The notes beneath the pieces are model-generated. The model ran no database searches and was not told the origin of the DNA. It was given only the letters and a program-made list of their open reading frames with translations. The position numbers were made by a program, and so were the translations under genes. DNA of 50,470 nucleotides, filler included, from Bipalium vagum (Eukaryota): the NCBI GenBank assembly GCA_037834085.1. It is 3 parts of 3 records of this genome, joined end to end, with 100 filler letters (N's around TTAATTAATTAA, not from the genome) between each part and the next. Parts side by side here need not be neighbours in the genome. Positions count along the whole stretch, not along the records: positions 17,092 to 33,705 come from JBBMKC010102839.1; 2 more parts are not named here. The stretch is one strand, 5' to 3'. Below, in pieces: positions 6,201 to 28,900 of the stretch (position 1 is its first letter; every line of letters starts with the position of its first letter).

Positions 6201-9200
6201 ACTTCATTTTTCTTAATATAAGTATATTTTTCGTTAAAATATAAAAATATTAGTTTAATTAACATTTGATTGTAAATAAATAACAGTTATAATAATTAGC
6301 CAAAAGTGAACTTAGATAAACTTTTATTAATTGAAAGTCTGCGTAAATATTTTTCAAGTAAGTTGTCAAAGAATTTATTATTTATCCCAATCAAATAGAT
6401 ATCAGTAGTTTCAAATAACCTAAATATCTGAAATATTATTGATTGAAAAAATTAATTCAAGAATCACATTTTATGAATACGTATACGAAAAATATCTGAT
6501 AAAATTAAAAAAATAATTTATAAAAATTTAAAAATATAATAATAAAAAATAAAATAATCATAAGAATTTAATTTCCATGAAATAATAATTATATTACTTA
6601 AAGAGAATAAAATTTTAAAAATAAATAATAAATGTACATTGGTATTTTGAATTTTCTCACACCAAAATTCGGAATTTTGATCTGAATTTGGCTCATTAAT
6701 CACAATTTTCACATCTTCTTCAATTTTGTCCAAAATCTCATTTAGACTTATAACATTCTGTTTGACATACTCCATTATTATGTTTTGATCTTCTGCTTCG
6801 CTTATGATTTCCACAATTGGTGTTATACTACTTTCAATCTCAAAAACAATTTTTTTTATTTTTTCAGCAATTTCATTTTTCAAATTTCGTTTACTGTGAT
6901 AGTCAATAATTTCTTGTTCCAAAACTTTTAAGATATCAAGCTTTTCTGTAAGTTGAATTTTCAGATCCTGAAATAAAAAATGTAATAATAAATGTAGAAA
7001 AACTATTGAATTATTATGAGAATTAATAATAATTTTCCGAACAATTATTATTAAAAAAATACAATAAATAAAAAATAGTCTGCTTTAAAAAAGAAAATAT
7101 TTTTAATGCATAGAAATTACAAATTGATACATTATTAAAAATTACAATATTTCATAAAATTACACTTAAACCTCGTTATCAGGAATACCTCCTTTTAAGA
7201 GACAAATTGGGAAGAAATTTTTGCACAAAAATTGACTAGGAAAATTAAGCTATTCTTTTTATATAGGAGACCCTCGTTATAAGACCAAGCTTTTGTCAAT
7301 TTTTTTATTTTTTTTTAATTTATTTTAAAACGCTTTTAACTGAAATTGTTTAAAAAATTATTACAATTTGTTAGTTTTTAAAAATGAACAAAAGAGTAAG
7401 GTTAAATATTCAAGAAAAAAGAAAATGTTGATCTATCTTCAAACTCAATGTAATTCCAATTTTAGAGTTAGCTATTTTTTTCCACAATTTTTAAAAAAAT
7501 ATTAATTATAAAAGCGTTTTAAAACTATCAGAAATGCAATCTTTGATAGATACAAATCCAAACGATTTATCAAAAAGATCCTGTCACTAATAACATTAAT
7601 GGAAAACTTAAAACAGGTAATTTAAAAAGATTGAGAAGATTAAAAAAAATAATATTCACGATATCTTTCTATAAAATATTTCTATAATTAATGAGTTTAC
7701 ATGATTATCTTAAAAGAAATATAATAGTCCTCCTCCTTTTAATATCATTTATTATATTGTTAATTAATACTATACTATAAAACGTATAGTAATATATTAT
7801 ACTATAATACGTATTTCTCCCTTTTTAAATGACGAAATGCGGCTAGTAGCAATTTCCTGTGTTGAAATCCATAAATTTTTTACATGATACCAATAATGTC
7901 GTCTTTAATTACTGAAAGTCGTCCAGGACGAAATTCCAACCTAACATCTCCATCACGAAATCGTCGAAAAAATTTCTTAATTATCCTTAAAGAAGGAGTA
8001 CCAACCAAATAAATGCCATGAACCTTTTTATAAGAAGTTCTAACAGATACACCTTTATGAAATTCATATAACATACATGACGTAAATGTATTTTATCTAT
8101 ATTTATATTTTAAATAATAATGCAAGATAAATATATAGTATTTAATCAAGCATGTAACTTAAAATAACATCTGATGATATCACCGGAATAGTATGATTCA
8201 TTTTAATATGAAACATGAGTTATTACGTCCTGATTCTGATTTGTGAAAAGTATTTAAAAATCGGGCCCGAACATTTGCAATGACCCAATATATTTCTTAA
8301 AATAAAGATAGATAATTTATTATGTATAAAATTAATGATTTGAACAATGTAAATTTAAATACAATGTAAATGAAAAAGAAATTTTTCTTTTTCAGGCACA
8401 GTACATCCTTAATTATATATATTAAAATTTAATACTTTTAAAATAAAAAAATCGGACAAACATCAGAGTTAAAATTTCAAAACTAACGGTTAAGCAAACC
8501 AGGTTTTCTTTAAAGAGTGTTTCTTGTTTAGATTTCAGCTTTGTAAGCTCTAAATTAACTTGGCCAATAAGATCAAGCGAAACCCTTTCCTCTTTAAAAA
8601 CCTGAGTTTGAAACTCATTCAGTTTTTCCACTGCTTCTTTGTACTCCTCTATAAAGTCGTCAATATCTTCAAAGGTTTTAATAAATAAATTTTCAATGTC
8701 AATAGTCTTCAGGCTCTTAACACAAACATTTTCTAAAATTAATATCTTTTCGAGAGCTAAAAGATTTTCCTTATCAGGCAATTTACATGCCAAACCCTTT
8801 TTCAAACACTAAAGATTATTTTTAATTATTTAATCGAAATAAATCATTTTTCCAAACCTCTAAATGGTTCAAAACTTCAAGCAAAATTATATCTTCCTTC
8901 GGTAATGAACACAAATTCGACTGTAAATCATTCAAAAATTTATCCAGTCCACTGGCGATTTCCATTGCTTCCGTACATCTTCCTGCTATGTCCAAAAATC
9001 GTTTTTGGGATTCTACTACTAATTCTTGGTATTGTATAATACTTGCCTTTCTTTCCCTATGGATACATTGTTGATCGCTAAAATTGCTATTTATCGATTT
9101 CATTTGTTCTTCCAAATAATAAATTTCTTCTGTCAACTGATTTCCATTATCAAGACCTAGTATAAGATTTTCTAAAGTTGAAACTTGAGCTTTAATAAGT

Positions 9201-12200
9201 TCAGGCTCCAAGCTGGTATTTTGAGTGCAATTTTGAAGAACTTTTATGGATTCCTTCAACCAAATATCTTGATTTCTTTTGGCATCTTCTAGCTTTAGTC
9301 TCAATTGATCTGTTAACTCTGTTATATTTTTTTCTTCAGTTTCTTTGAGATTTTGTAAGGTTTGCTCCATAGATCTCACTGACATTTGAAAATCCGATAA
9401 TTCCTTGCAAATTAATTTGTTCTCAAAATCTTTCAAATTTTCAACCAACACGCCACATGAAACCTGAATTTTGTTGATCCTTTCGATTTTAGAATAATGA
9501 TATCTGTACATTTCAACATAATCTCCCAACATTTGTTTATTTTCAGATATTATATTATTAATGTCTCTTTCCAAACTTTTAAATATATTTTCCTGATCAA
9601 GAATCATCTCCCACGTTTGTAATTTTAACTGTTTTGTGGAACTTATTTTATTAGTAGACTCAACAATTAATGCCAAAAATTCTTCCTCGCTCAACGTTTC
9701 TGGCTTAACAATTTTTTCTAAGTCTTTAATTAGCGTATCAAGTTTTTCCATTATCATTGGAAAAGGTGTATCCTTATTGTCGCTATTTGAAAATAAAAGA
9801 TCAATTTTAAACAATCTTTCGTCAATATCTTTAATATTGCTTTGAACAAATTCAGTGGCAACTTCTTTATTCAATATTAATTGTTTTTTATTCTCAAGAC
9901 CCTTCAGTGATGCATTTATGGTATTTACTGTTACCTCTATTTCTTGAATTCCTCTTTGCTGTTCTTTGCAACATAAACTCTTTTCCTGGAAATCTTTCAT
10001 TAGGTCTAATAATTTTAATTTAAATTCCACAGATATTTTGACATCCTTTATTAGTTCTTCTTTAGTAATGGTATCTTTATTTGTTAATAATTCCTTTACC
10101 TGATTTCCTATCATTTGACTTTCCGATAGATTTTCAGTTAGGTTGACTATTTTTTCTTCAACTATTGGTTCTAATTTATCAAAATCATCATTAATACTAT
10201 CGATCTGAACCTTCAATTCCGAACCAACCTTATGAGAGAATGTATTGAGCATATCTGATTTCTGTTGATTAATAACATTTATTTTCTCTTTTAATGAATA
10301 CAATAGTTCTTGTACTTCGTTCAATGACCATTCTTTATTTTCCTTCTTTAATATTACTTTCAAAACGTCAATTTTTGTTTTCAACTCATCTAAGTCTGAA
10401 CTTATTTGATTTTTAAGTATGCTTTTTTCCGTACTGATTATCAGATCTTGGGACATTTGTTTTGAGACCACAATGGCTTCCAATATTCTTTCTTGTAATT
10501 CCTTGGTTTTATCACATTGAAATCCTTTTGTCAAAGCATGTTGTAAGTGATTCAATTCATCTACATGTTCGACTATCTGTTGCTTTATATTATCAACGTA
10601 CTCTATATTATCCATATCTTTTAATAATTGCCATTCTTCAACTTTATTCTTATGATCTATTTCCATATTTTCCGCTAATTCAATATTTTGCTTCATATTT
10701 TTTATATTTTCTTCAATTTTATCAAACTTTTCCGACATCATTTTATAATCAGATTTTATGTCAACCTTATTAAACCCGATATCAGAGATGTAATCTTCTT
10801 CTTTTAATGAACTAAGGCATTCTTTAGCCCGACAAGACTTTGTAATAATATCTTCAAAGGTATTAATCACATCAACATTTTGAATGATATCTGACAATTC
10901 TTCAACTTCTTGTAACCTGATTTTTATTCTCTCATACTTCAGTTTTTCGGTTATTTCTCCAACAATTTCTTCTTTTTCTTTCAAAGCAACACATATCCTA
11001 TAATTCTGGTCTTGACCTTCTTTAGATTTGATTTCTGCGATTTCAGGAATAGGATATAACTCCAAACGTTGCTTATATTCTTCTAAAAGCTTTATTTTTT
11101 CCTCACTTTCACTGATAAGGTTTAATTCATCATTTATAAATTTCTGAATATATTTCAATTCACCATTCATTTCACCTATAATTATTTCGGTCTTATCCAA
11201 GCCGTTTAGATATTCTTTAAAATTAATTTCAAAATTATTTAATTGGAGTTTTTTGGATTGAAGTTCGACAGATTTATCGGAATCCTGAAGATTATCGCCC
11301 CAAACTTCTATACAATCTGTTAACAACTGCTCAACTTTATGTAATCTCAAAGAGATTTCTTCCTTTGATAATAATTTATCCAAATCTGTAGTAGATTCTT
11401 TTATTAATTTAACTTCTGTGTCAACCCTATCTAAAATATTTTCAAACATTTTTTCAGATACCATACGTCTCTTGAGTAACAAATTATCAATATTTTCAAC
11501 TTCTTTTCCACTTGAATGATCTAAATCAATTTTCTCACGACATGTCCATTGATCTGATGACCAAGGAAGTAGTAATTTACTCTTTGAGATTATAAGGTTT
11601 TGTTCAATATTTTTTAAGTTCTGTTCATTTTGGATCGGTGTTTCTTCAATTATATCTTGATTAAGTTTCTCATATGTTTCCTGAGATAACTGCTGACTGG
11701 CATTTACAATTGCAAGCTTTGTGCCCAAATCCACTTTCATCTGACAGATATTCAACTCTATGTTACTTAACTTACTTTCGATATCTGAAATTTTATACTT
11801 CATATTTATCTTTTCTGGTGAATTTTCTTGAATCTTTATATTATCAACATTTTTTATTAAGTTGATATTATCTTTCACTTCTTGTATTATAGTTTCGATT
11901 CCATGAATAGAAATAGGACTTTCATTAGAACATAAAGATCCCAATAATTCTGAAATTGAAAGATCAATTTTTTCAAGATCTTTGTTCCAACTTTTTATAG
12001 AAGTCTGTCTTTCTTCTTCAGCGGAAATTTTTGTATTAAGAGAATTAATTGAATCTTTAATAGCATCAACTAAATTTGATCTTTCAAGTTCAACATTCCT
12101 CAGTTCTTGGAAAATGTATTCACTGTCCAAATTAAAATTAAAAACTTTCTCCTCGATATTTAATAATTTATTTCTTTTCTCTAATAACTCCTCTACCGAA

Positions 12201-15200
12201 TTAATCCCGTACTCATTATCTTTGATTTCTAATTCAGTTAAATGATTATAATTTTGATTGATTTCAGCAAATTCCTTGTTCTTCATATTTATAAAATCAC
12301 TAAAACTATTATACTTTTCCCAAAAGTCCCCTGTCGACTTTTCAATTATTTTCAATTCAGAACTCAAGATTTCTCCACATTCTGAATTGATTTCATTAAC
12401 ATCACTGGAAATCTTTTCCAAATCCTTCAAGCTACTGTTCATTTTGTCCAGTTTACATTTCATTTCATCTAGATTTAAACAATTCTTATTTTCTTTCATA
12501 TAATTAAAGAAAATTCCCACATCTTTCAAGGATTCGCTTTTAATATTTTCAAACTCCTTCATCAAATTTTGTAATTTTTCTTCTTCTTCTTTCTTTTCTC
12601 TCTCAATATTTGTCAGTCTAATTTTATTCTGTATACACGATTCATTGACAGTGGCTATTTGATCAATATTAAGAAATCCTGTACACATTTCGGCAGCTCT
12701 TTGAATTTCAGTAAGATCTGACATAATAGCAGTTAGTTCCCCTAACTGTTCTGTCGACAAAAGTTTTGAATTTTTAATCTGAACCTGTTCGAATTGATTA
12801 ATTTGCTCACTGCATCTTCCCGATTTTTTTTCGAAATCCTCATAGAGACTGACTGCTTCAATAACAGGATTAATAACTATCTCGGCATGATCTATGAATT
12901 CATCTATTTTCTTGTTGAGTCCAATGCAAAGTTCAGGAATGTGTCCATTGAAAGCTGAATTTACATCACTAAGTTCAGATCGAATATCGGAAAGCATCTC
13001 AAGATTCGGTTTAACAAGATTCAATAAGATATTCAGATCATTAATTGTTGTAGTAGGAATTTTTGTTTTACTTTTCAGATCTTCAATGATTGGGTTCACT
13101 TGAGCTATGATAGATTGTACTTTAGAATCAGCTTGGATTAAATTATTTAATAAAATATCACTTTCCTTCTGTGCTTCTAGTTTTGAATTTAAAGAATCAA
13201 TATTTTCTTTGACTTTTTTATCTAGCAAAGAAATATTGTCTAATAAAGAGGCTATTTCTGTAATATTTGAGTATGGTCCATTATACGATATCAAGTTGAT
13301 TTGGTTTTCTAAATTTTGATAATTATCCTTCTCCTTCATTAGGATTTCAGTAGAAACCATTTCTACATTTTCAGAACATAATTTTCCATATTGAGAATTG
13401 ACTTTCTCGTAAGCCTCGTGGATCTCATTAATTGTCTCAACAATTTCCACATAAATTTTACTAAACTTATCTTTAATAGCTTGAACAGATTCCATCTTGA
13501 TGTCATTAATAGTACCTTCTTGAATATCAAGTTTTTTTATTTTGTTTAAAGTTACCATCATAACATCAGCATTTTGATTTGACCAGTCTAGGGCCTCCTT
13601 AAAGTTGTTGAGAGGTAATGTAATATTCTTGTCTTTTGTTTTTTCGATTAGATCTGTTAAATTTTTTAAAATTTCTTCTTTTGTATTATTAAAAATCTCT
13701 GATAAATTTTTAACCTCTTCTTCCTCTACACTAATTCTTGATTGTTGATTCGAAATTTCAAACAAAAGTGCTTTTATTCTATCCGTACAAGTCGTAACTT
13801 CATTGTATAAACCTCTGACTTCTTCGACATTCAGTCCGATTTTGTCCATTTCAATATTATCTGAAATTTCATTCAATTGGTTCAATATATCATTTGCTCT
13901 TTTCGATATAATACTCAACTTAATCAAATCATTATCTTCCTTAAGATCTTGTTCAAGAATATCGATTTTTTTCGATATATGTACCAAAAATTCTTTATTA
14001 ATACAACATTGATTTACGGTCTTCATCAATGGATTGATCATTGACTCTGTAGATTTTACACAATCATCAATTTTATTGCATATGGCAGTTTGAAATTCTA
14101 ACATTTGGGGTTGGACGAGTGGTTCCTCGAAATGGAGCTCGCTGACTTTTATTTGATTTAATGTATTATTGTTTTGAATGATGGTGTTCGTCAATAATTC
14201 AATATCTGTCAAAGATTTTTCTGGAGATTTTAGTAAATTTTCTAAATCTCTACTACAATTGTTACTATTTTCTAATAAAGCCTCAACTTCTTTGTTGGAA
14301 TCAACCATTTTCTCATGCTGACTGTCTGCTAACTTTAAGAAATTCAATAAATTATTCAATTCAATTTTTTTCCCATGTATTTTTTCTATCAATTGTCCAT
14401 CATCTTTTACAAATTCTTGAATTAATTGTTTTTCAAAATCATCAAGCTTATTTATCTGTAATTTCAGGGTGTGAATATTCTTTTCAATGGAAGTTGAGAT
14501 ATTTGAGTCATTTTCTTTTATGAGATCATCGTTCTTCAAATCGCAAATATCATTTATATTTTCTAGAAGGATTTTTTGATGCTCCAGAGTTTTAATATTT
14601 TTCGAAATCACTACTTTTAAATCTTTTATTTTGTGATCCATCTCTATAAAATTTTTATTATCATTGCTGGTCTTATAAAATTCTGCTCTTTCACTTATTT
14701 CTCCTAATTTTTTATCTAATTGGAGACTGAGTAAATAATTTTGATTTATGACCTCAATGTTACAGCTGTCCCATTCAGTTCCTTCCAAACGATTTTTCAA
14801 CTCATTGAGATCGTTTGATAAAATCAGTTGTTGTTTTTCTCTTTCTTGTACATTTTCCTTATTTTGAGAAACAGTACCTAATTTTTCGTCAATATACCTA
14901 TTTTTACTTCCAAGCTTAAATTTCAAATCCTCATACTTTTCTTGTATCAAAGGACTCAATAAGATTTGATTGTTTTTAAATTTCTCACAAACTTCTTGTA
15001 AATTTTCAGTTAATGTCACCATTTTTTCGTCGAATTTCTTTAATTGGCTTTTCATTAAAAATAGTTCTTCATCTCTTATTGCTTTTGATGATGTTTCATC
15101 AACTGATAATTCTAAGCTCTTTTCCGTTTCTTTAATTTCTTGAATAAAACCTCCACAATAATCAACTGCTATAATCTTTGATAAACATTGTTCACATATT

Positions 15201-16776
15201 TCTGAACTGTTCTTTAGACTCTTATCAATTTGCTTTGAAAATCTTTCATAAAATTTTGAAGTCTGAAACTCTTGGAGAAACAATTTCGACAAGCCAACTT
15301 TGTCATTAATGATTTTCATTTGATCATAGTACGAGTTTAATCGACTGATCAAGACTTCATAAATCAACTGGTTGTCAGTATTTATCATATCTTCAAAGAT
15401 CTGTAAGCAGATGTTATTAATTTCTTCTGTGATACATTGGTTTTCTTGTTCCATTTGATCTGAGAATAAATTGTCTATATCTTGGTTTATTTTGTCGATA
15501 TAATGACGAATTTCAACTGACAATGGATGAAGTTTGAAGTGAATAAGTAATTCTTTCAAATTATAAGGAATAAAATTTGAGTCCTCAGATTTATTAAACT
15601 GTTCAATGAATAAACCGAGATTTCTCTTATATTCTACGGATTCTGACATTTCATCAGAAATAAAATCGCCGAGAGTATTTGCTAATTCTTGAATTTTGGG
15701 CATTAGAGAATTTAGATCAAGTGTTTTTTCCTCATACTTTTGTTTCATCAAACCAGTATCAGAATATAAATTGTCTAGGAAATCCAACTTTAATCCAATG
15801 TTACTTTGTGAGAGTTTTCCGTTCTTGATAATAAATGTACAGTTTTCAACCCAGTCAGAAAGCAAAAATGAAGAGTTAACAAGAACGCAACAAGATTGTC
15901 TCCATTGTTCCAACTGTTCTATGTTATGAATATCTGCCAAACTTTTTGATAAATTGTTTATGTTTTCATTTAATCCCTTTAAATCATATAGTATTATATC
16001 CAATGACTCTTTGTTCCAATTAGGACAGCCTAACATCTCCAAATCACAATTAGTAAAAGCAATTTTTTCCAAGTTCCCATCCATTCTTTCTACTTTTTCT
16101 TCTATAGCCTTGACACAGGTTAATTTTTCGTTGTTGATAATATCTTGAACTGTAAAAAGTGGAACATTAAAAGTACTTTTATTGATGATTTCCAAATTAG
16201 TATCAATATTTGATATACATTTCTGAAAGATTTTTTGAAAAATTTCACTAATCACAGTTTTTTCTTTTTCTGATAGACTTTTCTCCTCTTTTTGGTAATC
16301 AGGTTCGTCTTTAGCTATTAAACTATTACTCTGGTCGGAAAATAATGACTGAACTGTGCTTGATATAATGACATCTTCTTCTGAAGTCATAAAGATGAGC
16401 GGATTATCTTTTTCTATCATTTCAGATTTATTTTCAATTGACAAATTAGTCTGATTGAACAACTGAATTGATTGAGATTCCACAAGGTCGCAAAGCATTT
16501 GAATATTCTCAATAGATGGTAGTATCATTTTAGCCACCTCTGGATCATTCAGCTCAATCTCAACAAACTTCGACTTTGAAATTTCAATAACATGGCTTTG
16601 TATAACATGGATTTGTTCAACAATTCTTTCTTGTTGTTTTAAGTCACTCAGCAACATGTTTTTAGAATTTCTTCCACTTTCTATGAATTGCTCAAGCTGC
16701 ATCTGCAGCAGTTTAATTTTTTCCGTTTCCTGTTCTACTTCTTCTTTGATTTTGATCGCTTGGGAAATTGTGGATC
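114..16776 (-). CDS. Partial multi-exon gene for a giant alpha-helical spectrin-repeat/coiled-coil protein (nesprin/ANC-1/Msp300 or spectraplakin-like). Exons 16776-8858, 8808-8500, 6967-6638, 3945-2875, 2763-2590, 2546-2403, 1640-1317, 1268-1095, 287-114; both ends lie outside the contig.
   Basis: All nine exons have AG/GT boundaries and splice in frame (all internal junctions phase 0), giving 10,619 nt with no stop. The protein is E/K/L/I-rich with heptad character and has spectrin-like Trp helices (YKRDIYEFSLWISNE, CILTWIESKR, DVLKWEKD, LLSDWVENC). The family call is an inference because no CH, KASH or GAS2 domain is in the window. Confidence 0.8.
500..900 (-). mobile_element. Degenerate mariner transposase fragment (intronic)
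   Basis: Minus-strand translation NVMFCVWLNFGGIIIFERISDGRTFNSDL (~640-743) resembles the mariner KVMLCVWW..GII..ELL...TINS block. Confidence 0.6.
1095..1268 (-). CDS. Exon of giant gene (MHHKSPIY...LAYVE)
   Basis: Follows a 48-nt intron; atAG|ATG and GAG|GTATTT boundaries. Confidence 0.78.
1317..1640 (-). CDS. Exon of giant gene (DILKKSTD...VNQMNE)
   Basis: ttcAG|GAT and GAG|GTTTTT boundaries; ORF 1299..1727. Confidence 0.8.
1746..2267 (-). mobile_element. Internally deleted Tc1-like element with both TIRs
   Basis: Inverted repeats TA|tgctcatcgtcaaaaattttaggtaggt and TA|taatcatcgtcaagagtcttaggcaggt, both TA-flanked. Frameshifted N-terminal paired-like HTH (ERCRIVGLFEAGLSQ...PKSGRLR) in ORFs 1938..2147 and 1739..2002. 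Confidence 0.8.
2403..2546 (-). CDS. Exon of giant gene, absent from the ORF track (KLVEELEIKK...YEHHLL)
   Basis: Follows a 43-nt intron; ttAG|AAA and TTG|GTAGGC boundaries; 144 nt, open frame. Confidence 0.8.
2590..2763 (-). CDS. Exon of giant gene, absent from the ORF track (DSNQSDD...YEFSLWISNE...SSVQ)
   Basis: ctcAG|GAT and CAG|GTAACA boundaries; 174 nt, open frame. Confidence 0.8.
2875..3945 (-). CDS. Exon of giant gene (MISIRLEEAAG...NGDIN)
   Basis: ORF 2845..3945; taAG|ATG acceptor and AAT|GTAGGA donor; 1071 nt. Confidence 0.85.
6638..6967 (-). CDS. Exon of giant gene (DLKIQLTEK...EKIQNTN)
   Basis: ttcAG|GAT acceptor and AAT|GTACAT donor; 330 nt; phase 0. Confidence 0.8.
7163..7700 (+). 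mobile_element. 5' relic of a pogo/Tigger-like DNA transposon
   Basis: TA|cacttaaacctcgttat TIR-like end with an internal repeat cctcgttataag; ATG at 7384 gives MNKRVRLNIQEKRK (psq-type HTH start). Confidence 0.5.
7850..8290 (-). mobile_element. 5' half of a mariner element
   Basis: ORF 7880..8074 (MLYEFHKG...FRRFRDGD..LE.RPGR) is the mariner HTH; TIR TA-TTGGGTCATTGCAAATGTTCGGGCCCGATTTT at ~8257-8290. Confidence 0.8.
8500..8808 (-). CDS. Exon of giant gene (CLKKGLACK...LFKENL); alternative in-phase donor at 8488
   Basis: ORF 8422..8805; acceptor ttAG at 8809-8810; phase 0. Confidence 0.75.
8858..16776 (-). CDS. Giant 7,919-bp internal exon of the spectrin-repeat/coiled-coil gene
   Basis: Corresponds to the 2626-aa ORF. 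Acceptor tttAG|GATCC at 16777-16778; donor GAG|GTTTGG at 8856-8857, followed by a 49-nt intron. Confidence 0.85.
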
Positions 16777-16861
16777 CTAAACATAAATAAATGTGTTTCT
16801 TGGTAAAAAAATAGTTGGAAAATAAGTATTTTTGAAATCTTTACATAAAATAATAAAAATA

Positions 16862-16991
16862 CACTACCGTGCAAAAGTATTGGGACACTTGATTTTTAAC
16901 GAGAAATATGCGTCAAAAACAAAAATTGACGTGATTAGAGATGCTAAATGTTCTTGAAATACAATACTATGTCCAGCAAATATAATATAAC
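16862..16991 (+). mobile_element. Tc1-type terminal inverted repeat truncated by the assembly gap
   Basis: TA|CACTACCGTGCAAAAGTATTGGGACAC. Confidence 0.55.
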
Positions 16992-17091
16992 NNNNNNNNN
17001 NNNNNNNNNNNNNNNNNNNNNNNNNNNNNNNNNNNTTAATTAATTAANNNNNNNNNNNNNNNNNNNNNNNNNNNNNNNNNNNNNNNNNNNN
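16992..17091. other. Assembly gap spacer N44-TTAATTAATTAA-N44
   Basis: Exactly 100 nt with an all-frame stop linker; identical spacer at 33706-33805. Confidence 0.97.
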
Positions 17092-17649
17092 TAAGATTAT
17101 ATAATCTTTTAGAAACATTAAATGAAAGAGTAATTTATTGTGATACTGATAGTACAATATTTATTGATGATTCTTGGGAAAATAAAAATTGTAGTCATGA
17201 AGAATGCGCGCCTGTTAGAAAAATTACAAGGAGAAAATTTAGGAGATTTAACAGAAGAAGTTGAAAAAGATGTTGGGATTGGATCTTATATAATAGAAAT
17301 AGTTGTACCTGCTCCAAAAGATTATCATATGAAAATTTGGAGTACTAATAAAAAAGAAATAGTTACATCAGATAAAAAAAAAGGATTTGTAAAAAATAAT
17401 ATTAATTCAAATAAACTAACTTTTGAAAAGAAAAGGAATTTAGTATTAAATAATCCATTTAACAAAAGCAAGGAAGAAAATTATGAAATCATTGAAAGTA
17501 TAAAATTTAAATTAACAGGAAATAGTTTTAATAATTTTAATAGAATACAAACAATAAATGAAATAAAAATGTATGATTTTGATTTTAATAAAAAACAGAT
17601 CACATATTTAGAAAATGGTAATGTAATAACTTATCCATACAAATATTAA
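17092..17649 (+). pseudogene. C-terminal part of protein-primed family B DNA polymerase (pPolB), frameshifted near 17220
   Basis: RLYNLLETLNERVIYCDTDS (YCDTDS at 17136-17153), then in the ORF frame GENLGDLTEE...YI.EIV.PAPKDY...KKKGF...K.YDFDFNKK...TYPYKY*. Confidence 0.9.
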
Positions 17650-18057
17650 AAATTTTATTGCTTAGAAAAAAAAATTGATTTACCAACATGCAAGTTGAGG
17701 GGGTTATTCCCCCAACTAACAACTTACCAAATAAAAAATATAATTGTTGGATGTCTATACCAAAAAATATTTGGTTTGAAGATATTGAAATTTGAGGGAG
17801 AAATTGTCCTCTAACTATAAACTTGTCAAATTAAAAAAAGTATACATATATAACAAACATTTATTTTTATTTACAATCATGAAAGGTGGGTGGCTAAAAA
17901 CCAACCACCCAACAACTCTTCAAATGAAAAAAAAAGTTTGTATATTTATACTAAAAAAATATTTGATTTATAAATATGTAAAGGTTAGTGAAATTTTATG
18001 TCACAAACTAACAAATTGACAAATTAAAAAAATAATTGTGGTATACCTGTAGTGTTC

Positions 18058-18153
18058 CATATTTTACTTTCATTATTAAAAAATGTGGCTATTACAAATA
18101 ACATCATATTTTACTTTCATTACTAAAAATGGGGTCATTACAAATGACCTCAT
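18058..18153 (+). repeat. Two imperfect ~48-bp tandem direct repeats upstream of the endonuclease gene
   Basis: catattttactttcattattaaaaaatgtggctattacaaataacat / catattttactttcattactaaaaatggggtcattacaaatgacct. Confidence 0.75.
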
Positions 18154-18179
18154 AAAAAAATCAAATTTTATTTTAAAAA

Positions 18180-18764
18180 ATGGCGAATACAAATTTAATT
18201 ACTGAAAATTGTCAAACTGTAAATTTAAATAAATGTTCACAATGTAATTTGATAAAACCTATTTCTGAATTTTATTCAAAAATGAATAAATGTAAAAATT
18301 GTCATAAATCTAATGTTACACAACATAGAAATATTCCAAAAAATAAAATAAAATAAAATATAATAATATAATATATAATAATAAATAGAAAACAAGAAAA
18401 TCCAATGTTATAACTTCAACAAAATTTATATACCAGTTTAAGTAGATGTTTAAAAGAACGTAGAGAATCTAAACATTCAGAAGAATTATTTGGTGGTACT
18501 CTTGATTTTTTATATGAGTGGATTGAGTTTCAATTTTAGGATGGAATGACATGGGAAAAGCAAGGATGTTTTTGGCACATTGATCATGTTCTTCCAGTTT
18601 CTAAATTTGATTTTGATAATAAAGATCATTTTAAAACATGTTGGAATTTGAAAAATTTAAGACCATTAGGAGCTGATAAAAATCTAAGTAAAAGTAATAA
18701 AATTTATTATAAAGAATATTTATTTCAAGAAATTAAAGCAAAGTATTTTGAAAAAGAATATTAA
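18180..18764 (+). pseudogene. Zn-ribbon plus HNH-type endonuclease of the giant-virus/phage MTWENYG-WHIDH family, disrupted
   Basis: ATG 18180 ...KCSQCNLIKPISEFY...KCKNC; after a frameshift, FLYEWIEFQF*DGMTWEKQGCFWHIDHVLPVSKFD...CWNLKNLRPL.ADKNLSKSNK. Confidence 0.8.
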
Positions 18765-19035
18765 AAAAACGGAAATATTTCATAATTATTTAAAATGGAT
18801 AAGATGAAAAAATTTATAAATTATTTTTTTCCAAATTTACCAAACTTTTGGCAATAAAAAAATGAAGTAAAAATTCGGGCGAAGTCCCAAGAGAGCAAAG
18901 TGCTCGTAAAAATTAATAAAAAAAATAATTATAATGAATTCAATAATTAAAAAAGCATTTTATCATATGATGAAAAAGTTTAAGAAATTTTGATACCATT
19001 TTCTTAACTATAGAAAATTCTTAAAAATAAAATTT

Positions 19036-20286
19036 TTATAATTCTCCCAATTTTGATTTAGTTTCAAAATTAATCATTTTTCCACCTCCAAGTTTTATTT
19101 CCATAAATTTCTCATGTAATAAAACATAATTTAAAAATCCTTTAAAATAATTTTCTTTTTCAATAAGTAAAGTTATTGTTGCTCCATTTATACATAAATT
19201 TTTTGCTTGATCTGTTAAATCAAAAAAAATATGGAATATAACTTCAAATTCTAATAAAGATAACTGTGGATCATTCTTAAAATATTAAGATGCTTCTACA
19301 TAATTCAAATAAGTTTCATCATTGTATCCTTTCTTAAAGTTTTTTGGTTTTAAAGGATAATAAGTATCAACAAGTTGAATTTGTAAAGATTTAATTTTTT
19401 CTTGAACAAATAAACTATTATTTTTTTTATTGCCAATATCTGATTCTCTGAAACCAATAAATAAATATATAGAAATATTAGGGATAATATATATATATTT
19501 TTATTGTTTGAATTGTTCCTTCAGTTAATTTTAATTCTAAATAGTTCTACATAGAAAATTAACATAAATATTTTTCTCATCACTCATTCTTGAAATAAGA
19601 TTTAATCTTGCTTAATTATTTAATTTTATTGATGGAATAATAATGAAAGTTTTTTCAATTTTATTTTTGGTTGTTGATTATCTAAAACTCCATGTGTTCC
19701 ATAAAAAATTTCTTTTTCTAAATTAGTTATTTTTCTTACTAATGTTATTTTTCCCTGGATATTATATAAAGCTTTTCTAAAATATTGCAAAAATCCAAAC
19801 ATTAATTTTAAAAGAAATCTTCCTCTGCATGTATTATTTGAATATAATCTATTTCTAGATTTAAAACCCGTATTTGTTTTTAGCTTCGTTCTCTTTAATT
19901 TTATCAGAAATCCAACCAAATAATTCTCCATTATTATTTTTATCAATCATTACAAAATTTGTTATGGAATTTGATGGACCTAATTTTTGAATAGTTTCTA
20001 TTTCTGTTGATACTAATTTTAATGATGTATTTGAAAATAATTACGGAAAAAATTTATTCTGTAATGTAATAATTTCTTCTGCCTTAACATTTTTAATTTC
20101 GATTTCATAAATAAAATATGCATTACATATTTCTAAAGAATTTGTTTTAGGTGTTATTGTAAATGTTAATTTTCCTGTATCATTTAAATTTTTTATTGTT
20201 TCTGGATCTAAGCTTACTTCATCATAATCAGTTTTCTCATATGTTGTTTTTCGATGATAGTAATTTTATCATAAAAAAACTTCCAT
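19036..20286 (-). pseudogene. Polinton major capsid protein (double jelly-roll), with stops and frameshifts
   Basis: Reconstructed blocks: NLNDTGKLTFTI..NAYF; TLQNKFFP*LFS...EIE...G; FGW...NTGFKSR...LKLMFGFLQYFRKALYN...TLVR; YLFIGF...NNSLF...YYP...LSLLEF...FFDLTDQ. Size ~415 codons. Confidence 0.8.
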
Positions 20287-20419
20287 TTTTTTATAAAAAA
20301 ATATAATTTTGCAGTAAAGCAGCTTTTTGCTTAGAGAACAAAGTTCTCGCTGTTGGTGACTTCATCACTAATCAAATGCACAGCTTTGCTGCTAGTTCAA
20401 CTTAGTTGAATGCTGATGA

Positions 20420-21155
20420 AATTATCTTTTTTGTTTCTAAATTTATAAAAAAAATAATTATATTTTTATTTTTATGAAAGTTAAATAAATAATCAAATTC
20501 TTCTTTTTCAACAAAATGAGATAACATTTTTGAATAAATTTGATTTATCATTTTTAGAAATTTCAAATAAAATTAAAACATTGGAATTTTTTTTATTCCT
20601 TCTTAATGGTAAATCAAAAAAAGATTGTGATAAATATATTACTGAACATTTATTATGTCTTCCTCTAGTGAAATACTTCCATTATATATTGAATTTTTCA
20701 TTTATTACATCATCAAATATAATTAAGTTTTTAACATTTTTGGAAACATTACATCCAAGAGCGAAGCTCGTATTTAATTTATCTGGTGGTTGAATTTCAT
20801 TTGTTTTATCAGATAATGTCACTTTTATTTCTCTTTCTTTATGTTTATAATTTTTTTCATAAAATTTATATATATTTTCATTTTTAAACAGTTGGCAAAC
20901 TTCATCTTTTGATAATCCATAATCAAAAAAATCCTTAATATATTTTAAAGCTGGTTGAAGAAAAGCAGTTTTAGAAAAAATAATCAAATTTTTATAATCA
21001 ATATAATCTTTTTTTAATAGCGTATTATATAATAACACTGTTTTTCCTGAACCAGAAAGACAAATTATCAACATTCTAAAAATTGAAGGTAGATTAGAAT
21101 GATGTTTAAATTTTACAGAATTATTATTTAAGAAATCATCACAATACAATTCCAT
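20420..21155 (-). pseudogene. A32-like (FtsK/HerA superfamily) DNA packaging ATPase, frameshifted; 3' end approximate
   Basis: LPSIFRMLIICLSGSGKT (degenerate Walker A) and NLIIFDD (Walker B); after the frameshift, KYFTRGRHNKCSVIYLSQSFFDLP. Confidence 0.9.
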
Positions 21156-21259
21156 TTTTTAAAATATAATTTGACTTACTATTATTAATATTTAAACTTT
21201 TTTGAGGTGCAGCTTACCTTACAAGCTAGCCTTAAGCTCTATCACTTTTTGAAAGCAGG

Positions 21260-22056
21260 TTATATCTGCTTTAAGTGAATTTTCAAACTAATTTCTTCTC
21301 CATTAAAATCTATTAATTCTCTGTTATCATCAATTATTCTAAAATTTATGACATAAATATTTGTTGTAATCACAGGAAAATAAATCGGAAAATTTGGTTC
21401 TTTATTAATTTTATATTCTCTTTTAATAGTATTCGTAGGAAAATCATAAATAATAGTGTTTTTTATTATTAAAATACAATCCACTTACAATATCACAATC
21501 AACCATAATTGTATTTATATCTGAAATATTAACTTTTTTAGAATAATAAACTTCTTCTTCATAAGAATTTTTAACTTCAAATCATAAAAAATTTGCCAAT
21601 GAATTTTGAACAAGAAAAGATATTTTGCAACCTTTAGATATTTCCATGATACAGTTTGCAGAAATTGGATTAGCAACAATCTTAAAATAAAATTTCTTTT
21701 TCTAAAGATACTAGATCTTTGTCATATTTAAATTGGTACTCGATTGAATTAGAAATATCTGAAATTTCATATGCTCCAGGACCTAGTTTGAAATTTAATT
21801 GTTTATTTTTACCTATTGAATCTGTAATATCTAAATTGATTCTATTATTTTTTCAGTAACATTCAAAATTGAATTATAAGTGGAAAAATAAACTAAACCT
21901 AATTTATAGTTTATATTGTCTTTAAGTTTTAAAGGATAATCTAATCTTAATTTTTCTTTCTGAACTATTTCTTTTTATAAGAAATGATGTTGAAAATTTT
22001 TCAGATAAAAGGTTTGTTATTTTTCTTAACGATTAGGAAGCTCCACTAGATTACAT
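21260..22056 (-). pseudogene. Polinton minor capsid protein (penton, single jelly-roll), disrupted
   Basis: YPLKL...YKLGLVYFSTYNSILNVTEKNN...GAYEISDI...VNISDINTIMVDCDIVSG...IIYDF...YKI.KEP..PIYFPV...RIIDDNRELIDFNGEEISLKIHLK. Confidence 0.85.
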
Positions 22057-22069
22057 TTTTAAATTTATT

Positions 22070-23048
22070 TTTTAATAAAAATCTGTAAGTAAAATTTTTT
22101 TTGTTTCTTTTATTCAAAATATTTTCATAAACCTTTGGTTTAATTCTTTTTTGTTTTTTTAAATTTATTTAAAATTTTTAAGAATAAATGATCAAGATTA
22201 TCTTGTCCAGGTTTTTTAGCAGATAAATATTTTAAAGTTACAAACTGATCAAGTGCATACTGAGGTTTCTCAATTTCATAACATTCTCCTTTTTTTATTT
22301 CATTTTTTTCATTAAATTTATTTTGAATATTTTTCATATATATTGAATTCATAGATCCTTTAACATATCTTATTAGATATTAATAATTATGCAAATCTTT
22401 TAAACTATAATCTCGTTCAATTATTCAAAAAAATATTAGCATAATCTTTACCTTCAATTAATGATTTAAAACCTTCTGATAACACTCCAGAATCTGGTTC
22501 ATTTTGTTTCTTAAAATTTATTTCAGTACCAATTTTAAATAACTCAAAAGAAATTTTATTTATTGTTAAAATATTTTTTTCAATTGATGGTTTAAGCGAA
22601 TTTGGTAACTCTGGATTGATATGAAAATAGTTTTCAAAATTAAAATCATATTTAGGAGGTTTTTCAATTTTATGAGTAAACAATTTTTATTCATTTTGCT
22701 CACTAATGTCTTCAGTTAAAATATAAGTATTTTTGTCCAATTTTTGATTTCTTTTGGCAAAAGTCACTGCGTCTTTTTTAGTTTCTTTTTCGATTTGTAA
22801 TTTTTTTTCTTTTTTATCTAATTTAGCTAGTTTTGCTTGAGTACCGAGGGTGCTAGTGCCATGGGCATGCTTAGATTTATCAATCGTATCAGTAACTGGT
22901 TTATGAAAAGTTGTTAAATTTTCTTCTAATTCTCTTTGTGCTTTCATTGATTTACTATTTTATTATTAAAATTTTCTACTATTGTTATTAACTTTTTTAA
23001 TATTTCAATTTCATTTTTATTATCAATTACATTTTGTTTTGGGTTCAT
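22070..23048 (-). pseudogene. Uncharacterised Polinton protein (coiled-coil N-terminus with FHKPVT motif), split over ORFs 22687..22947, 22417..22683 and 22140..22352
   Basis: Three abutting same-strand ORFs after a TAAAAAATG start; LEENLTTFHKPVTDTI resembles the F-K-P-[IV]-T motif of a conserved Polinton ORF (recalled, not searched). Confidence 0.55.
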
Positions 23049-23299
23049 TTTTTAAAAAATAAAATAAGTATAAAATCGTACTATAAAAAATCAAAATAAT
23101 TTGTAGAAAAAATTGTCAACAATAAATCATTTTAAACTTCTTCCCATGGGAAAGTAAAATATTCAATTTCCAAAAATCATAAATATCTTGAAGAGAATTT
23201 ATTTCTGTATTTTTTAGTTCTGGATGAATTTCTAACAAACATAAAATTTTAATTAACTCAAATATTTTTTATTATTTAACTCACTCATTTTTTAATATA

Positions 23300-23940
23300 T
23301 CTTTTATATATATTTTTAATAAATTTTTAGTCTCTTTCGTGGTTGAACCACTAGGCTGTTTCACAGATGCTCTATACTCTTTTTTAGTTCTATTTTCAAT
23401 TCTTTTTTTGCTTCGTTTTCTAAATTTTCAATAATATTTCCCGATTTGATCTTTTTAATATTTTCTATACATTCACAAATTTCTCTGTAAAGTATTTTTC
23501 GTTTAAAAGTTATTCCTATGCTAATTGTTTCTGCAATAACTCTGAAGACCTAAAATACTAGTTGTAAGAGAAATATATATTAATAAACTAGTTCCAATTG
23601 TTGGTACATCAGACATAATCGCTGATCCAATTCCTAAAACACATCCATATCTTAAAAATGAATCTATTTTAGTATATTTAAATTTTAATTTTTTATAATG
23701 TTGTAATAAATTTTTTAATACTTTTTTCTCATTCGTAAAATTTTCTATTTTCATTTTTTCCAATTGCGTGATAATAGGATTATGATAAAACTTCGCTGGA
23801 TTTAATAATGGATTAGAGAATTGAAGATCCTCCATGAACTTCGCTTGATTAGAAAATCCTTCGTCAACTTCACAGGCAAAATTGTTTTGTAAAACAGGAT
23901 AAATAGGAGCAGTTGGTTTTTCAATTTTTTCAATTTCCAT
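23300..23940 (-). pseudogene. Predicted membrane protein of the Polinton (possibly the adintovirus 'gasderminX' class) with N-terminal PTAP-IYPVL
   Basis: ORF 23521..23940: KPTAPIYPVL, basic helix HYKKLKFKY, then two hydrophobic Gly-rich segments; basic tail after a frameshift. Confidence 0.55.
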
Positions 23941-23959
23941 TTTTAAATAAGAAATTTAA

Positions 23960-24809
23960 AATTTCAGGGAGTAGACATAGACTATAAAAAATTTACAAGA
24001 AATTTCTCAGAACGCTACGTTAAAGCATATATTAAGATAGAATCTTTTCATAAAAACTTCAATTTCTTTCAGTTGATTGTTTAATAAAAAATTATGAAAA
24101 ACTATAATATCATAAATTTTAATATTTGCTGAATTAAATCTAAATTTATAATTACCATTTGATGGAAAAATTGTTGAATATTTTTCTTCTGAATTATAAA
24201 AAAATGTGAATGCGATTTAAAATTTAGTGGTTTATTACAACGTAAAAATATTATATCAGTTCCTGTATATATTTTTTTCTTGAACAAAAGTTTTTCCAAG
24301 AGGTCTTCCATTAACCATAAAATAATTCCTATAAATATTATACCAACCAAAAACATGATAATTATTTGTTGTTCCAAAATTAATAATGGTATCGGCACGG
24401 AATTTTGGAATTGAGTGAAAGATGGCGGAAGACGATAGACTACGACGGATTGTATTTTGAATATTAATTATACTTGTATTTTTTGTTTTGACTTATTTTA
24501 ATTTTTTCAAAATAGTGTCTAAAGACTTATGGGACACCCTAATATCAATTTCATAATTGATTTTTCTACAACTAAAACAATTGTAAATTCGAGACCTTTG
24601 GTTTCAAGAGCGGAGCCTGCATCTTTTATTTCTGCTATTAACTCTCCTTGAAAATATCCAATATCATTTTTATAAATTCTTAACAGACTAGAGGTTGTCT
24701 TTTCAGTAGTAATTTCAGATGTAAAAGATTTCCAATACGATCTCCATGAAATAGGATTTAATTTTTATATTATTCATTAATTTCTGAATCTTCAGATACT
24801 TTATTTCAT
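23960..24809 (-). pseudogene. Unknown Polinton ORF interrupted by a mariner fragment
   Basis: TAAAATG start at 24809; fragmented coding-like sequence on both sides of the insertion. Confidence 0.35.
24390..24542 (+). mobile_element. 3' end of a mariner element inserted in the Maverick
   Basis: HGILELSERWRKTIDYDGLYFE matches the mariner C-terminus; right TIR gacttatgggacaccctaa|TA. Confidence 0.7.
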
Positions 24810-25145
24810 TTTAGAAAAAATGTGGAATTTTCCGTTTTTTACCCTGCAGGAATGGAAAAGTCCCACTAAATCATTTTTTAGTTGTTGGATTTTATTTTTT
24901 ATTATCTAAATATTCACACTCCATTTAAGAGAAAATTTGATTTTTATTAAGAGACTCTGTCTCTCAAGAAGCGAGTTTTCAGTTCTTGCACTTTCAGTGC
25001 GCGAAGCTTTGTATTTTTTTTTACTTATTTATTTTTTATTAATTTTTTAAACATTTTTGAATTTTTTATTTTTTAATCATTAAAAAGAGTAGTATGTAAT
25101 TTTATTCTTTTTCTTCTTATTATTATTATTCTTATTATTTTTTTT

Positions 25146-25258
25146 ATATCTCCAGCATATCCCGCCAAAAATATTTTTTTGAATAATCGTGTGCACACGC
25201 ACACGTGAATGAAAAAAAATTTTTTTGAGGCGCGGGATATGCTGGAGATATTACTACT
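25146..25258. repeat. Maverick terminus with subterminal palindrome (perfect 20-bp arms) and terminal AGTAGT
   Basis: ATATCTCCAGCATATCCCGC (25146-25165) / GCGGGATATGCTGGAGATAT (25232-25251), then TACTACT ending at 25258. Confidence 0.85.
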
Positions 25259-25912
25259 ATTGTTTTCTGTTATTATTTTGATCAATTTGATCAACGATCA
25301 ATTTTATGGAGATTATTTTGATTCAATAGCGCGATTTTACAGTAAAGTCTTCGTGGTTATTTTGATCCAACTGAGGATGAATTTTCGAGGTTATATAGAT
25401 TTAATGGATATGATATCAAAAAAGTGAGGAGTTAGGAAAGTTCAAGCTTAAAGTTACATATTCCATTGAATCCATAAAAAATTTATAATTTATTTTATTT
25501 TTGAGATTAATCAATTATTTTAAAAAAATTTTTCAACTGTTAATTTACGATTATGTTCAATTCATTAGTTTACAATTTATAAAATTTAGTTTTTAATTTT
25601 AATTTAATCTTTACAATTAATATTTTTGCATATTCTGGTTTATTAATCCAATTTGTTATTTTCATTTTAGTTTGAAAAAATGATATATCTTTAGTGTTTT
25701 CTCAAATTTCACAAGAACATCCAGATTTTCCTTTTCCAAAAAATGTGATTTCGAAGCTTTATTAATATTTTTTAATATTCATACTTGAGTAAGTCATTTA
25801 AATCATAAAATAAAATATATTCAGATGAAACTTTAACCTTAGTGATCAATTATATTCTGTACCAGTATGAAATTAATAAAATATGTTTGTAGAACTGTTT
25901 TGATCAAAATAT

Positions 25913-28900
25913 CTATTCAGGTGGTTCGACACAGACTTTTATTGCCAAATGTTTTGATGGGATCGATAATAACACTCTAAAAATATATATTATTCATATA
26001 TTGTTACACAATATTTTTATTGCTAATTTAATCGAGATTTTAAATAATAAACCTCCAAAATTCATTACAAGACCTAGTTTTATTAATTTTTTGATAAGTG
26101 AAGTAGAGGAGAAATTTACTAAAAATAAAAATGATTATATATATGATCAAATGTGTTCTTTACCCTACAAATAAAACGAGTTTTGATAAAATTATAAAAT
26201 TAATAACTCTTTAATATTTAGCTTCATTAACCATGAATATTTTCAAGTACTTCAGGCAAATTTCAGGAGATAATGACGAAGGTTGTCGGTTGTATAAAAG
26301 GAGTAATGGTCTATCTGGACGACTTATTAGTGTTTACGGGAACTGAAAGTGAGCATTATAAGGTTCTGAACGAAGTACTAAGAAGAGTGCGGGAAGCTGG
26401 ACTAAGGATAAATACAGAAAAGTGTCACTTGCTGAAAGAGGAAATTAAGTTCTTGTGTCATGTGGTGAGTAGAAAGGGGTTAGAGACAGACCCTTCAAAG
26501 TTGGAGGCGATTAAAATTTCGAAAGGCCAAAATGTGCAAAAGGATTGAGAAGCTTTTAGGGATCTGTAACTATTATAGAAGATTTATAAAAGAATACTCG
26601 AAAAGATCTAGGCCCTTGCAGAGAGTGTGTGGAAAGAGTAAGAAAAATTAATATGGACACTTGAGATGGAAGAAGCGTTCAAGGAGATGAAAAAAGCATT
26701 AACATCAAGTCCCGTTATTAAGAAGGAATTTATTCTAGATACAGATGCAAGTTTTGATTCAATAGAAGCAGTTCTATCTCAACTGGACGAAAATGAAAAA
26801 GAACGAGTGATAGCATACGGCTCTCACGCCATGAGCAGCCATGAAATTGGTTACTGCATTACTTAAAAGGAATTACTGCTCATTTGTTACTTTTGAAATC
26901 ACTTTTAACATTATTTATACTGAAGGAGGTTCAGGCTGAGAACGGAACATAAAGCAATCAACTTCATGATGAGTACTAAGAAGCCGATCACGTCGCAATT
27001 CCAAACGAGGATTAATTACTTGAGCAGTCTTGACATTAAGTTCGAATACAGGAAGGGTTCGATACATACGAACGCATATTTGTTATCTAAACCAAGATGC
27101 GAAACATGTAGTCACTGCCAATTAGTGCATGAGGAGGCGAAGAAGGGAAAGATGAAATTCAGGATGTTGGATGCAATAAGCACAGAAGACATTAAAGATG
27201 CAGAAAAGAACTTGATATGACATGTTCGTACATTGTTGACTCATGTAGATACTGAGAAGGTCGTGGAATATATGAAGGGGAAACATGATATAAAGGGTTT
27301 GTGAAGTAAAGTACGGAGGGTATTGTCAGGGTACTAAGCGTTTCAGAAGCATAAAGTGGTTATATCAGCAACAAAAGAGGCCACAGTGAAATTGTAAGCA
27401 TCTGAAATGTTTGAGAACATTTATGTCGACATCTGCGGTCCGTTAACGGAAACCAGGAGGAAGAAAAAGTACATCCTAGGCATAATAGATCAATACAGGA
27501 AATAGATCTGTTTAACTGCGGTAGCAAGGCAGGACGAAGAGACAATTATAGAGAAATAAAAAAAGTTTGGTTTTCAAGTCACAAGACTATCAATGTGGAT
27601 GGCGCAAAAACATTTGAGTCAAAGAAGATGGCAGAGTTCGCGAAAAGTAAAATTCAGAACTACGGTTCTCAAGTCAATACCACCATAACACTAATGGCCA
27701 GATCGAACGGCAATTTAGAACTATTAGGGAGAGACTAAATGCAGCTAAAGCAGAACAAAGAAGGAAGGATTGGGTGGAACTATTGTCAGAAGTTGAGTTT
27801 TCATTTAATGCAACAACGCAGAAGACGACAGGATGGAAATTATATTTGGCAGGGGCATAGACCGAGAAAGAGGGTATCCGTCGAGAAAGAAAGTGGATAT
27901 AACGGAAGTGGAATAGATGACGAAAAAGATTTTTGAAGTTGGTGAAAAAGTCCTGGTCAAAGTGGAAACGAGGAACAAGGACCAGCAAAGACACGAAGGT
28001 CATTATTGAATCCAAAGAAAGATACATGGAAGACGGTATTTGATAGAACACGCAGATGGAAGAATTCTGGAGAGGAACGATGAGAAGTTAAAAAATTATT
28101 GAGAAGGGGATATAAGGAGTGATTAGAACAATTAGTTTGCTTGAATTTTTTTAAATAAGGACCTCACACCTAAATTAACAATTATTAAATGTTTTTAATT
28201 TAAAGTTTTTAAAAATTAAATTACGTTTTTAAAGATATTTAATGAAATATTTTAAATAAATATTAATAAATTTTAAAAAGGTAAATAATTTAATTTTAAA
28301 AAATGGTGAAATTCAAGTTTGAAAAGTTTGTTTGAGTAATCGGATTTATTGAAATATCTTATCATTGCTTTGATTTTGAATTATTATTTAAAATGACTAC
28401 ACAAGAATATAACTAATGTTATAAAAAAATTGATCAATTAAACAAAAACACTATATAATTCATCATTCTGACTAAAACTAAAAAAATTTTTTTATAATCA
28501 CTTTGAACCGGGTTTTTAAAATTGTGCAAAAAATTAATAATATATAAAGTTAAATAAAAAATATAAATTTAAGAAAAAAAAATTTAACAAATAAAATTAC
28601 TTGATTCCTGATCTAACTCGATAAAAGCTCGATGCTTGTAGGTTGATAATTTGAGAGTCAACAGTCAATGTCGCGTTTCCTTTCTGGAAATTTTTAATAT
28701 AATATAAATTTAATAATATAATATATAATAAAAAACTGAATATTTATTAAAGTTTGGTTTATTGTTTTACCAAAATGTATTGGTTATCAAATTAATTTTT
28801 AAAAATTTTCACATAAAAATCAATTAAGTTTGTAATAGATTGTAATTAAAATTCGACATTCGAATTATAAATATAAAGTATTGATCTTCATAATTAATGA

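Follow-up and report, generated by a model that had tools for sequence, protein, structure and literature searches.

YPx(n)L and P(T/S)AP are established ligands of ALIX and TSG101, respectively, and retroviral Gag typically combines two distinct motifs for entry into ESCRT within a single tail (passages of PMC8402826). A well-described case is NS3 of bluetongue virus, a protein with two transmembrane (TM) segments, polybasic motifs, PSAP and PPRY, which drives the non-lytic exit of a non-enveloped virus (parts of PMC7409164). Among other viruses, ALIX is recruited to the inner nuclear membrane by herpesviruses (PMC8231873, in part), a precedent that would be relevant to Polintons if these assemble in the nucleus, and an iridovirus has been described to bud through ALIX, TSG101 and Nedd4 (PMC4880917, in part).

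In Polintons and their kin, several accessory genes have been named. PLA2X, GasderminX, Cupiennin, Adintoc and SLATT are known from adintoviruses (Starrett 2021; parts of PMC8502044), while the Maverick genes PW, PZ and PM, the last of which is placed between the genes atp and pz, were listed as uncharacterised (Barreat and Katzourakis 2021; parts of PMC8097293). SLATT proteins are predicted pores (bioRxiv 10.64898/2026.04.29.721553, in part), and their genes, widespread in Polinton-like viruses, have been proposed to encode pores for endosomal escape (PMC12220804, in part). No link between Polintons and ESCRT was found among the top-ranked papers of the openly searchable literature. The main text of Starrett 2021 is silent on ESCRT, egress and budding, and a preprint (10.64898/2026.06.19.733378, in part) makes no mention of ESCRT.

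A conserved Polinton gene, broken in the window

The window, i.e. the whole stretch of 50,470 nucleotides of Bipalium vagum DNA that was analysed, is overall AT-rich animal DNA. An ORF of 139 aa on its minus strand (23521..23940) is the 5' part of a broken gene and ends early after a frame change. Translation confirmed what a sequence-only reading of this DNA had noticed at the N-terminus of the ORF, a tandem of late-domain motifs encoded by 23890-23916 (minus strand): PTAPIYPVL (aa 9-17) consists of a PTAP of the TSG101-UEV type (aa 9-12; 23905..23916, minus strand) and of IYPVL, a YPxL motif of the ALIX-V type (aa 13-17; 23890..23904, minus strand), both also backed by the family counts given below. 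This is the single P[ST]AP in a six-frame translation of the 50-kb window, and shuffling the first 60 residues of the ORF produced both motifs jointly in 17 of 200,000 cases. The basic helix reported to follow the motifs is present as well (aa 68-97; 23650..23739, minus strand); it is conserved in the family alignment, where it precedes a hydrophobic hairpin, and is helical in the AF2 model of a relative, P0017. Of the hydrophobic part described in the same reading, intact relatives have a long uncharged stretch, but the hairpin region of the window copy (23545..23649, minus strand) is weak. Comparison of hydrophobicity and charge with relatives shows it to be degraded and shortened, with a Kyte-Doolittle peak of 1.56 and a longest uncharged run of 25 aa, and it is interrupted by the frame change. 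Matches to homologues run in frame -2 as far as ~23545 and continue in frame -3 at ~23537, and a 3' remnant in this other frame (23364..23549, minus strand; family profile E 1.4e-7, and tblastn) encodes the end of the hairpin, a polybasic stretch and a C-terminal coil, an internal part having been lost, so that the window copy is without part of the conserved C-terminal region. The copy is a pseudogene fragment of a conserved Polinton gene, and since it is dead any claim about the motifs concerns the gene family rather than the window locus.

In the one public run that contains it, window 22300-24800 is multi-copy, with 1,143 contigs (251 at 99% or above, 333 at 95-99% and 559 at 90-95%). In one run, 12 contigs track the motif-coding stretch and then diverge at 23881, just beyond it, which lends weak support to the reading proposed below; summed contig depth in the same run, possibly the window's own sample, peaks over the start and motif codons, depth here not being copy number.

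The assignment of the gene to a Polinton is supported by broken ATPase, penton and major capsid genes that lie downstream on the same strand. The remnant of an A32-type packaging ATPase gene (20511..21155, minus strand) matches Pfam Pox_A32 (E 3e-4) and, by tblastn, the ATPase of the nearly complete Polinton L001 (E 3e-21), and has 14 homologues (best 1e-44). The minor capsid (penton) gene (21263..21974, minus strand) was recognized with a penton-like ORF of L001 (tblastn E 5e-7), and the double-jelly-roll major capsid gene (19039..20265, minus strand) with the L001 capsid (phmmer E 0.0025), itself Pfam DJR-like (E 7e-56). Also downstream is a broken ORF (22420..22959, minus strand) that we take, by position and by eye only, to be PZ/GasderminX-like, its BLASTP match to P0052 not being significant. 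Upstream, a remnant (24010..24216, minus strand) is possibly what is left of the fibre-like gene, which in the metagenome locus L037 stands ahead of the family gene, a tentative assignment given the weak phmmer match (E 0.46). On the plus strand, the Polinton holds a broken zinc-finger/HNH-like nuclease gene (18177-18761; weak GmrSD_C match, E 0.007) and, beside the N gap, a likely C-terminal remnant (17094..17811) of what is presumably a protein-primed B-family DNA polymerase, labelled from a YCDTDS motif seen by eye and without support in Pfam or tblastn searches. Neither a retroviral-type integrase nor terminal inverted repeats were found in 16900-27000, where the element is decayed and ends at the N gap.

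Elsewhere in the window, a 2,672-codon open frame (8822-16840, minus strand; no Pfam match) encodes a giant acidic coiled-coil host protein, with 2845-3945 and 1299-1727 (minus strand) noted alongside it. This frame starts mid-frame and is thus likely one exon. The Polinton, perhaps located in an intron, lies on the other side of an N gap (16992-17091), which is filler that joins separate records. There are also a broken remnant of an LTR-retrotransposon pol (26237-27220, plus strand; Pfam RVT_1 E 4e-13) and a remnant of a Tc1/mariner transposase (42574-43029, plus strand; HTH_Tnp_Tc3_2 E 3e-12).

An unnamed family of membrane proteins

Searching 1.84 billion representatives with the window ORF (HMMER) returned seven relatives, and a profile search returned 17 proteins, 12 of which were new. 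Intact relatives are ~180-280 aa long, and none of the 19 family members looked up has a name. Pfam holds no family for the window ORF, a word-based protein search with it yielded none among eight candidates, and scans of viral contigs found no close relative. None of 270 candidates in prokaryote genomes and no phage record belonged to the family. Among solved structures, there was no relative by sequence and no Foldseek match at E 0.001. Of the Atlas clusters with a name, the closest consists mostly of viral entries, Preplasmiviricota being the commonest (0.92, a weak value on the tool's own recognition scale). In two metagenome loci the neighbours were labelled by eye: L037 has, in order, the end of a penton gene, a protease-like ORF, a fibre-like ORF and the family gene, and in L035 the family gene adjoins a polymerase-like ORF of 1341 aa.

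A remote relative, P0048 (L001:6266-6799), resides in the virion module of L001, where its neighbours are a pX-like gene (Pfam Adeno_PX E 0.007) on one side and, by eye, a PZ-like gene on the other. The evidence that ties it to the family is modest (HMM E 0.002, hhalign probability 33%), and it keeps the core without either motif, showing that not every Polinton needs them. A search with P0048 recovered P0048 itself only, and among 54 loci retrieved with a degenerate DNA pattern the sole family member was on P0048's own contig. Among its listed Atlas matches, 29 of 30 are clusters without a name, of which the top three score 0.95; where an origin is recorded it is eukaryotic, most commonly Mollusca. 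Animal genomes thus contain a large family that has yet to be named.

As to a published name, an Adintoc, PM or 'SLATT' are candidates, compared by description and position only. Starrett's 'Cupiennin' was considered and dropped, a separate pX-like gene upstream in L001 fitting that description better (by eye).

The family has a conserved C-terminal region (~150-190 in P0017), an acidic helix-loop-helix that is absent from the window copy and bears a faint resemblance to EF-hands (Pfam EF-hand_5 in one of 23 members, E 0.05).

Late-domain motifs persist in a tail that does not align

Motifs were counted in 18 N-termini from 20 aligned proteins, P0015 and P0032 having been dropped as their N-terminus is cut short, and were compared with 5,000 shuffles, none of which reached any of the enriched counts observed. 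[ILMV]YP is present in 17 of the 18 tails (shuffle mean 0.76), [ILMV]YPx[LIV] in 14 (0.15) and YPxL in 12 (0.21), while [ST]AP occurs in 12 (0.42) and exact P[ST]AP in nine (0.03). PPxY is found in 0/18. These 18 members are not independent, core identity ranging from 23 to 97% with a median of 43%. P[ST]AP is hence absent in half of the tails (9/18) and [ST]AP in six, among them P0025, which starts beyond the tail of its near-twin and is probably truncated. Ile precedes YP in 11 of 17 cases, IYPxL being found in most members, and three members have an overlapping YPTAP; the classic ALIX motif is LYPxL, with Leu before YP. Near-twins P0034-P0047 were excluded from the count: both motifs are present in all of P0037-P0047 (11/11), P0034 and P0036 have IYPSL only and P0035 is without the tail. 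Decayed metagenome copies (L035-L038) were likewise left out of it; in the L037 copy, PSAP and a remnant resembling IYxNL can still be made out in two frames.

A second control gave the same picture. Of 304 unique ORFs of at least 100 aa from loci L001-L039, a set that includes spurious ORFs and comes mostly from non-animal elements, none has P[ST]AP or [ILMV]YPx[LIV] within its first 60 aa, and four have [ILMV]YP there. Apart from the motifs, the tails show no similarity beyond background, since the median alignment score of 91 pairs from 14 tails was 21 with the motifs removed and 21 after shuffling, as compared with 28 with the motifs kept. Spacing between the motifs varies from -3 to +56 and their order can reverse, and members with both motifs are spread over several starred clades of the core tree. 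This combination of floating order and spacing with persistence of the motifs is, judging from the sequences, the behaviour of short linear motifs under selection. The question raised with the initial reading, whether the motifs are lost among homologues, is thus answered by conservation far above chance in an otherwise unalignable tail.

Predicted topology and fold

Intact members have one uncharged stretch of 42-49 residues, rich in Gly, Ala and Ser (29-52%), in all 15 that were measured. Its flanks are basic in each of these, with 5-8 K/R versus 1-3 D/E before it and 4-5 versus 0-3 after it, and intact members have no signal peptide or N-terminal hydrophobic segment, nor is there a sequon in the hairpin. 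According to the positive-inside rule, basic flanks mark the cytosolic side. The tail and both ends of the protein would therefore face the cytosol, whether the hairpin spans the bilayer twice or merely dips into it. A luminal location of the motifs had been named as the outcome that would speak against ESCRT recruitment; the charge pattern instead places them on the cytosolic side in 15 of 15 members, as far as the positive-inside rule predicts it.

The AF2 model of P0017, built from 23 sequences, has a mean pLDDT of 72.9 and a pTM of 0.49. Residues 1-23 are non-helical and of low confidence, residues 24-96 and 100-159 form helices whose tip is the hairpin, and two more helices follow at the C-terminus. 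The protein is thus predicted to consist of a disordered tail, two long antiparallel helices with a hydrophobic hairpin tip and two C-terminal helices. A fold search of BFVD gave three matches at E <=0.001, all of them uncharacterised proteins of invertebrate iridoviruses (E 1.2e-5 to 6.4e-5). In a wide structure search with VIA-align, the model aligned with BAR domains (SNX5, Z 11.6, rmsd 3.3 A over 171 residues; Vps5, Z 11.4), at Z-scores below the ~13 that VIA-align asks of helical bundles, and this likeness may be a common helical arrangement.

The family most often shared by the members in profile searches is NCBIfam SLATT_1, to which seven of 23 members align (best E 0.0014), staying in register from the helix ahead of TM1 onwards. 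The scores (13-19 bits, best 18.6) do not come near the cut-off of 41, and the fluoride channel CrcB attains equal ones. SLATT-labelled giant-virus proteins account for six of the 50 BFVD rows listed (E 0.13-0.76), and with genuine SLATT_4 proteins from Polinton-like viruses hhalign gave 1%. The positive controls from loci L019 and L008 were recovered with SLATT_4 at E 5e-12 and 2e-10, being themselves under its cut-off of 55. SLATT_4-like two-TM genes occur near the ATPase in contigs of Polinton-like viruses (L019:4336-4950, L008:2138-2710 and nine more of L001-L039), and they have no late-domain motifs. The family is SLATT-like in build and is possibly a divergent SLATT protein.

A putative ESCRT-recruiting exit protein

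Because the motifs are established ligands and two independent ESCRT entry motifs co-occur, the tail probably binds the V domain of ALIX and the UEV domain of TSG101. What argues for this binding, and for any function derived from it, is the conservation of the motifs. To our knowledge, animal Polinton particles have never been seen. By analogy with known adaptors, the protein might link capsids to a membrane from which ESCRT-III releases them without lysis, a role for which the case is about evenly balanced. In such a scenario, the protein would be embedded in the plasma membrane, the nuclear envelope or an endomembrane, its two ends being cytosolic or nucleoplasmic, its N-terminal tail would recruit ALIX through YPxL and TSG101 through P(S/T)AP, and the conserved C-terminal helices or the polybasic stretch would hold the capsid. 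Scission by ESCRT-III would then release the capsid into a multivesicular body or through either the plasma membrane or the inner nuclear membrane, yielding a quasi-enveloped particle in the manner of orbivirus NS3. The full proposal can only be put forward tentatively: animal Polintons might carry a dedicated ESCRT-recruiting exit protein, with a SLATT-like hairpin and ALIX/TSG101 motifs, shared with invertebrate iridoviruses and budding capsids across nuclear, endosomal or plasma membranes as quasi-enveloped particles. The original suggestion of a polintovirus protein that recruits ESCRT is strengthened by the conservation of the motifs and by the Polinton context; it is weakened by P[ST]AP being exact in only half of the tails and by the motif-less P0048.

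A different function, rather unlikely as a full account, is that the protein acts in the first place as a viroporin, a SLATT-like pore that serves lysis or escape from endosomes, its motifs serving only to sort it into multivesicular bodies or vesicles or to limit toxicity via membrane repair, with no budding of capsids. The sub-threshold SLATT_1 matches and the SLATT-labelled BFVD rows point in this direction, as do the Gly/Ala/Ser-rich hairpin, the retention of the core without motifs in P0048 and the abundance of SLATT genes in Polinton-like viruses, where they are the proposed endosomal-escape pores. However, the SLATT scores fall far short of the cut-off and are equalled by those of CrcB, the hhalign result with SLATT_4 is poor, and the SLATT_4 proteins of Polinton-like viruses have no such motifs. 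Moreover, the two roles need not exclude each other, NS3 being both viroporin-like and an ESCRT adaptor (parts of PMC7409164), and going by the weak SLATT resemblance a pore may be an equally plausible core function.

It also appears improbable that the motifs recruit ESCRT or other readers of proline motifs in order to remove host membrane proteins or reshape membranes, for immune evasion or factory building, rather than for the exit of particles. Such readers include ALG-2 and WW or SH3 proteins. The prevalence of IYPxL and the overlapping YPTAP would suit this, and the alignment with BAR domains might hint at membrane shaping, but PPxY is absent from all tails, the BAR Z-scores are too low for helical bundles and the gene is placed among genes for virion morphogenesis. 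Finally, chance or neutral inheritance of the motifs is very hard to sustain and has largely been refuted already, for although four-residue motifs are short, the window's gene is no longer functional and several of the homologues are closely related, the motifs are enriched over shuffles and over the control ORFs and persist at shifting positions across clades while the surrounding sequence is randomised.

An exit role for the protein would have several implications. A purely intracellular transposon would have no use for two ESCRT motifs kept throughout a family of predicted membrane proteins, and quasi-enveloped budding, if true, would explain how Polintons spread from cell to cell and across species while the host cell survives. 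The finding names a host pathway and indicates where particles should be sought, namely in extracellular-vesicle fractions that would be missed by purification of naked capsids, so that Polinton exit becomes directly testable with peptides and a single expressed gene. It may also suggest what a group of as yet unnamed proteins of iridoviruses does and, if true, would extend an NS3-type exit strategy to integrating dsDNA viruses.

Comparison with known systems

The SLATT proteins of Polinton-like viruses have a helix, a two-TM hairpin and cytoplasmic helices, an architecture that the predicted one of the family fits, and resemble the family in being of similar size and in belonging to the same class of element. 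They differ in that the family has a late-domain tail and a conserved C-terminal helix-loop-helix, whereas SLATT_4 of Polinton-like viruses is without such a tail. The named accessory genes of adintoviruses and Mavericks share the same gene module with the family. Retroviral Gag offers the same motif pair in a flexible tail, as in HIV-1 p6 (PTAP and YPXnL) and MLV (PSAP, LYPAL and PPPY) (passages of PMC8402826); Gag, however, is itself structural, while in Polintons the motifs are on a separate membrane protein that has no homology to Gag. The iridovirus proteins A0A5B8RH66, A0A068QKD3 and S6DF61 are the best fold matches, nearly full length at 18-22% identity, but rmsd is 9-19 A on an all-helical model.

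The closest parallel in function is orbivirus NS3/NS3A, a small two-TM protein with N-terminal late domains that include PSAP, a polybasic stretch before TM1 and a role as a bridge between particle and ESCRT (parts of PMC7409164). There are also differences. Orbiviruses are dsRNA viruses and Polintons integrating dsDNA elements, NS3 has PSAP and PPRY where the Polinton family has YPxL and P(S/T)AP and no PPxY, and a glycosylated luminal loop of 21 aa in NS3 contrasts with a continuous uncharged hairpin in the family. Homology to NS3 was not detectable in BFVD (NS3 rows at E 0.76-0.80, TM ~0.2) or as a Pfam match. The Polinton family most likely works like orbivirus NS3, of which it is best regarded as an analogue rather than a relative.
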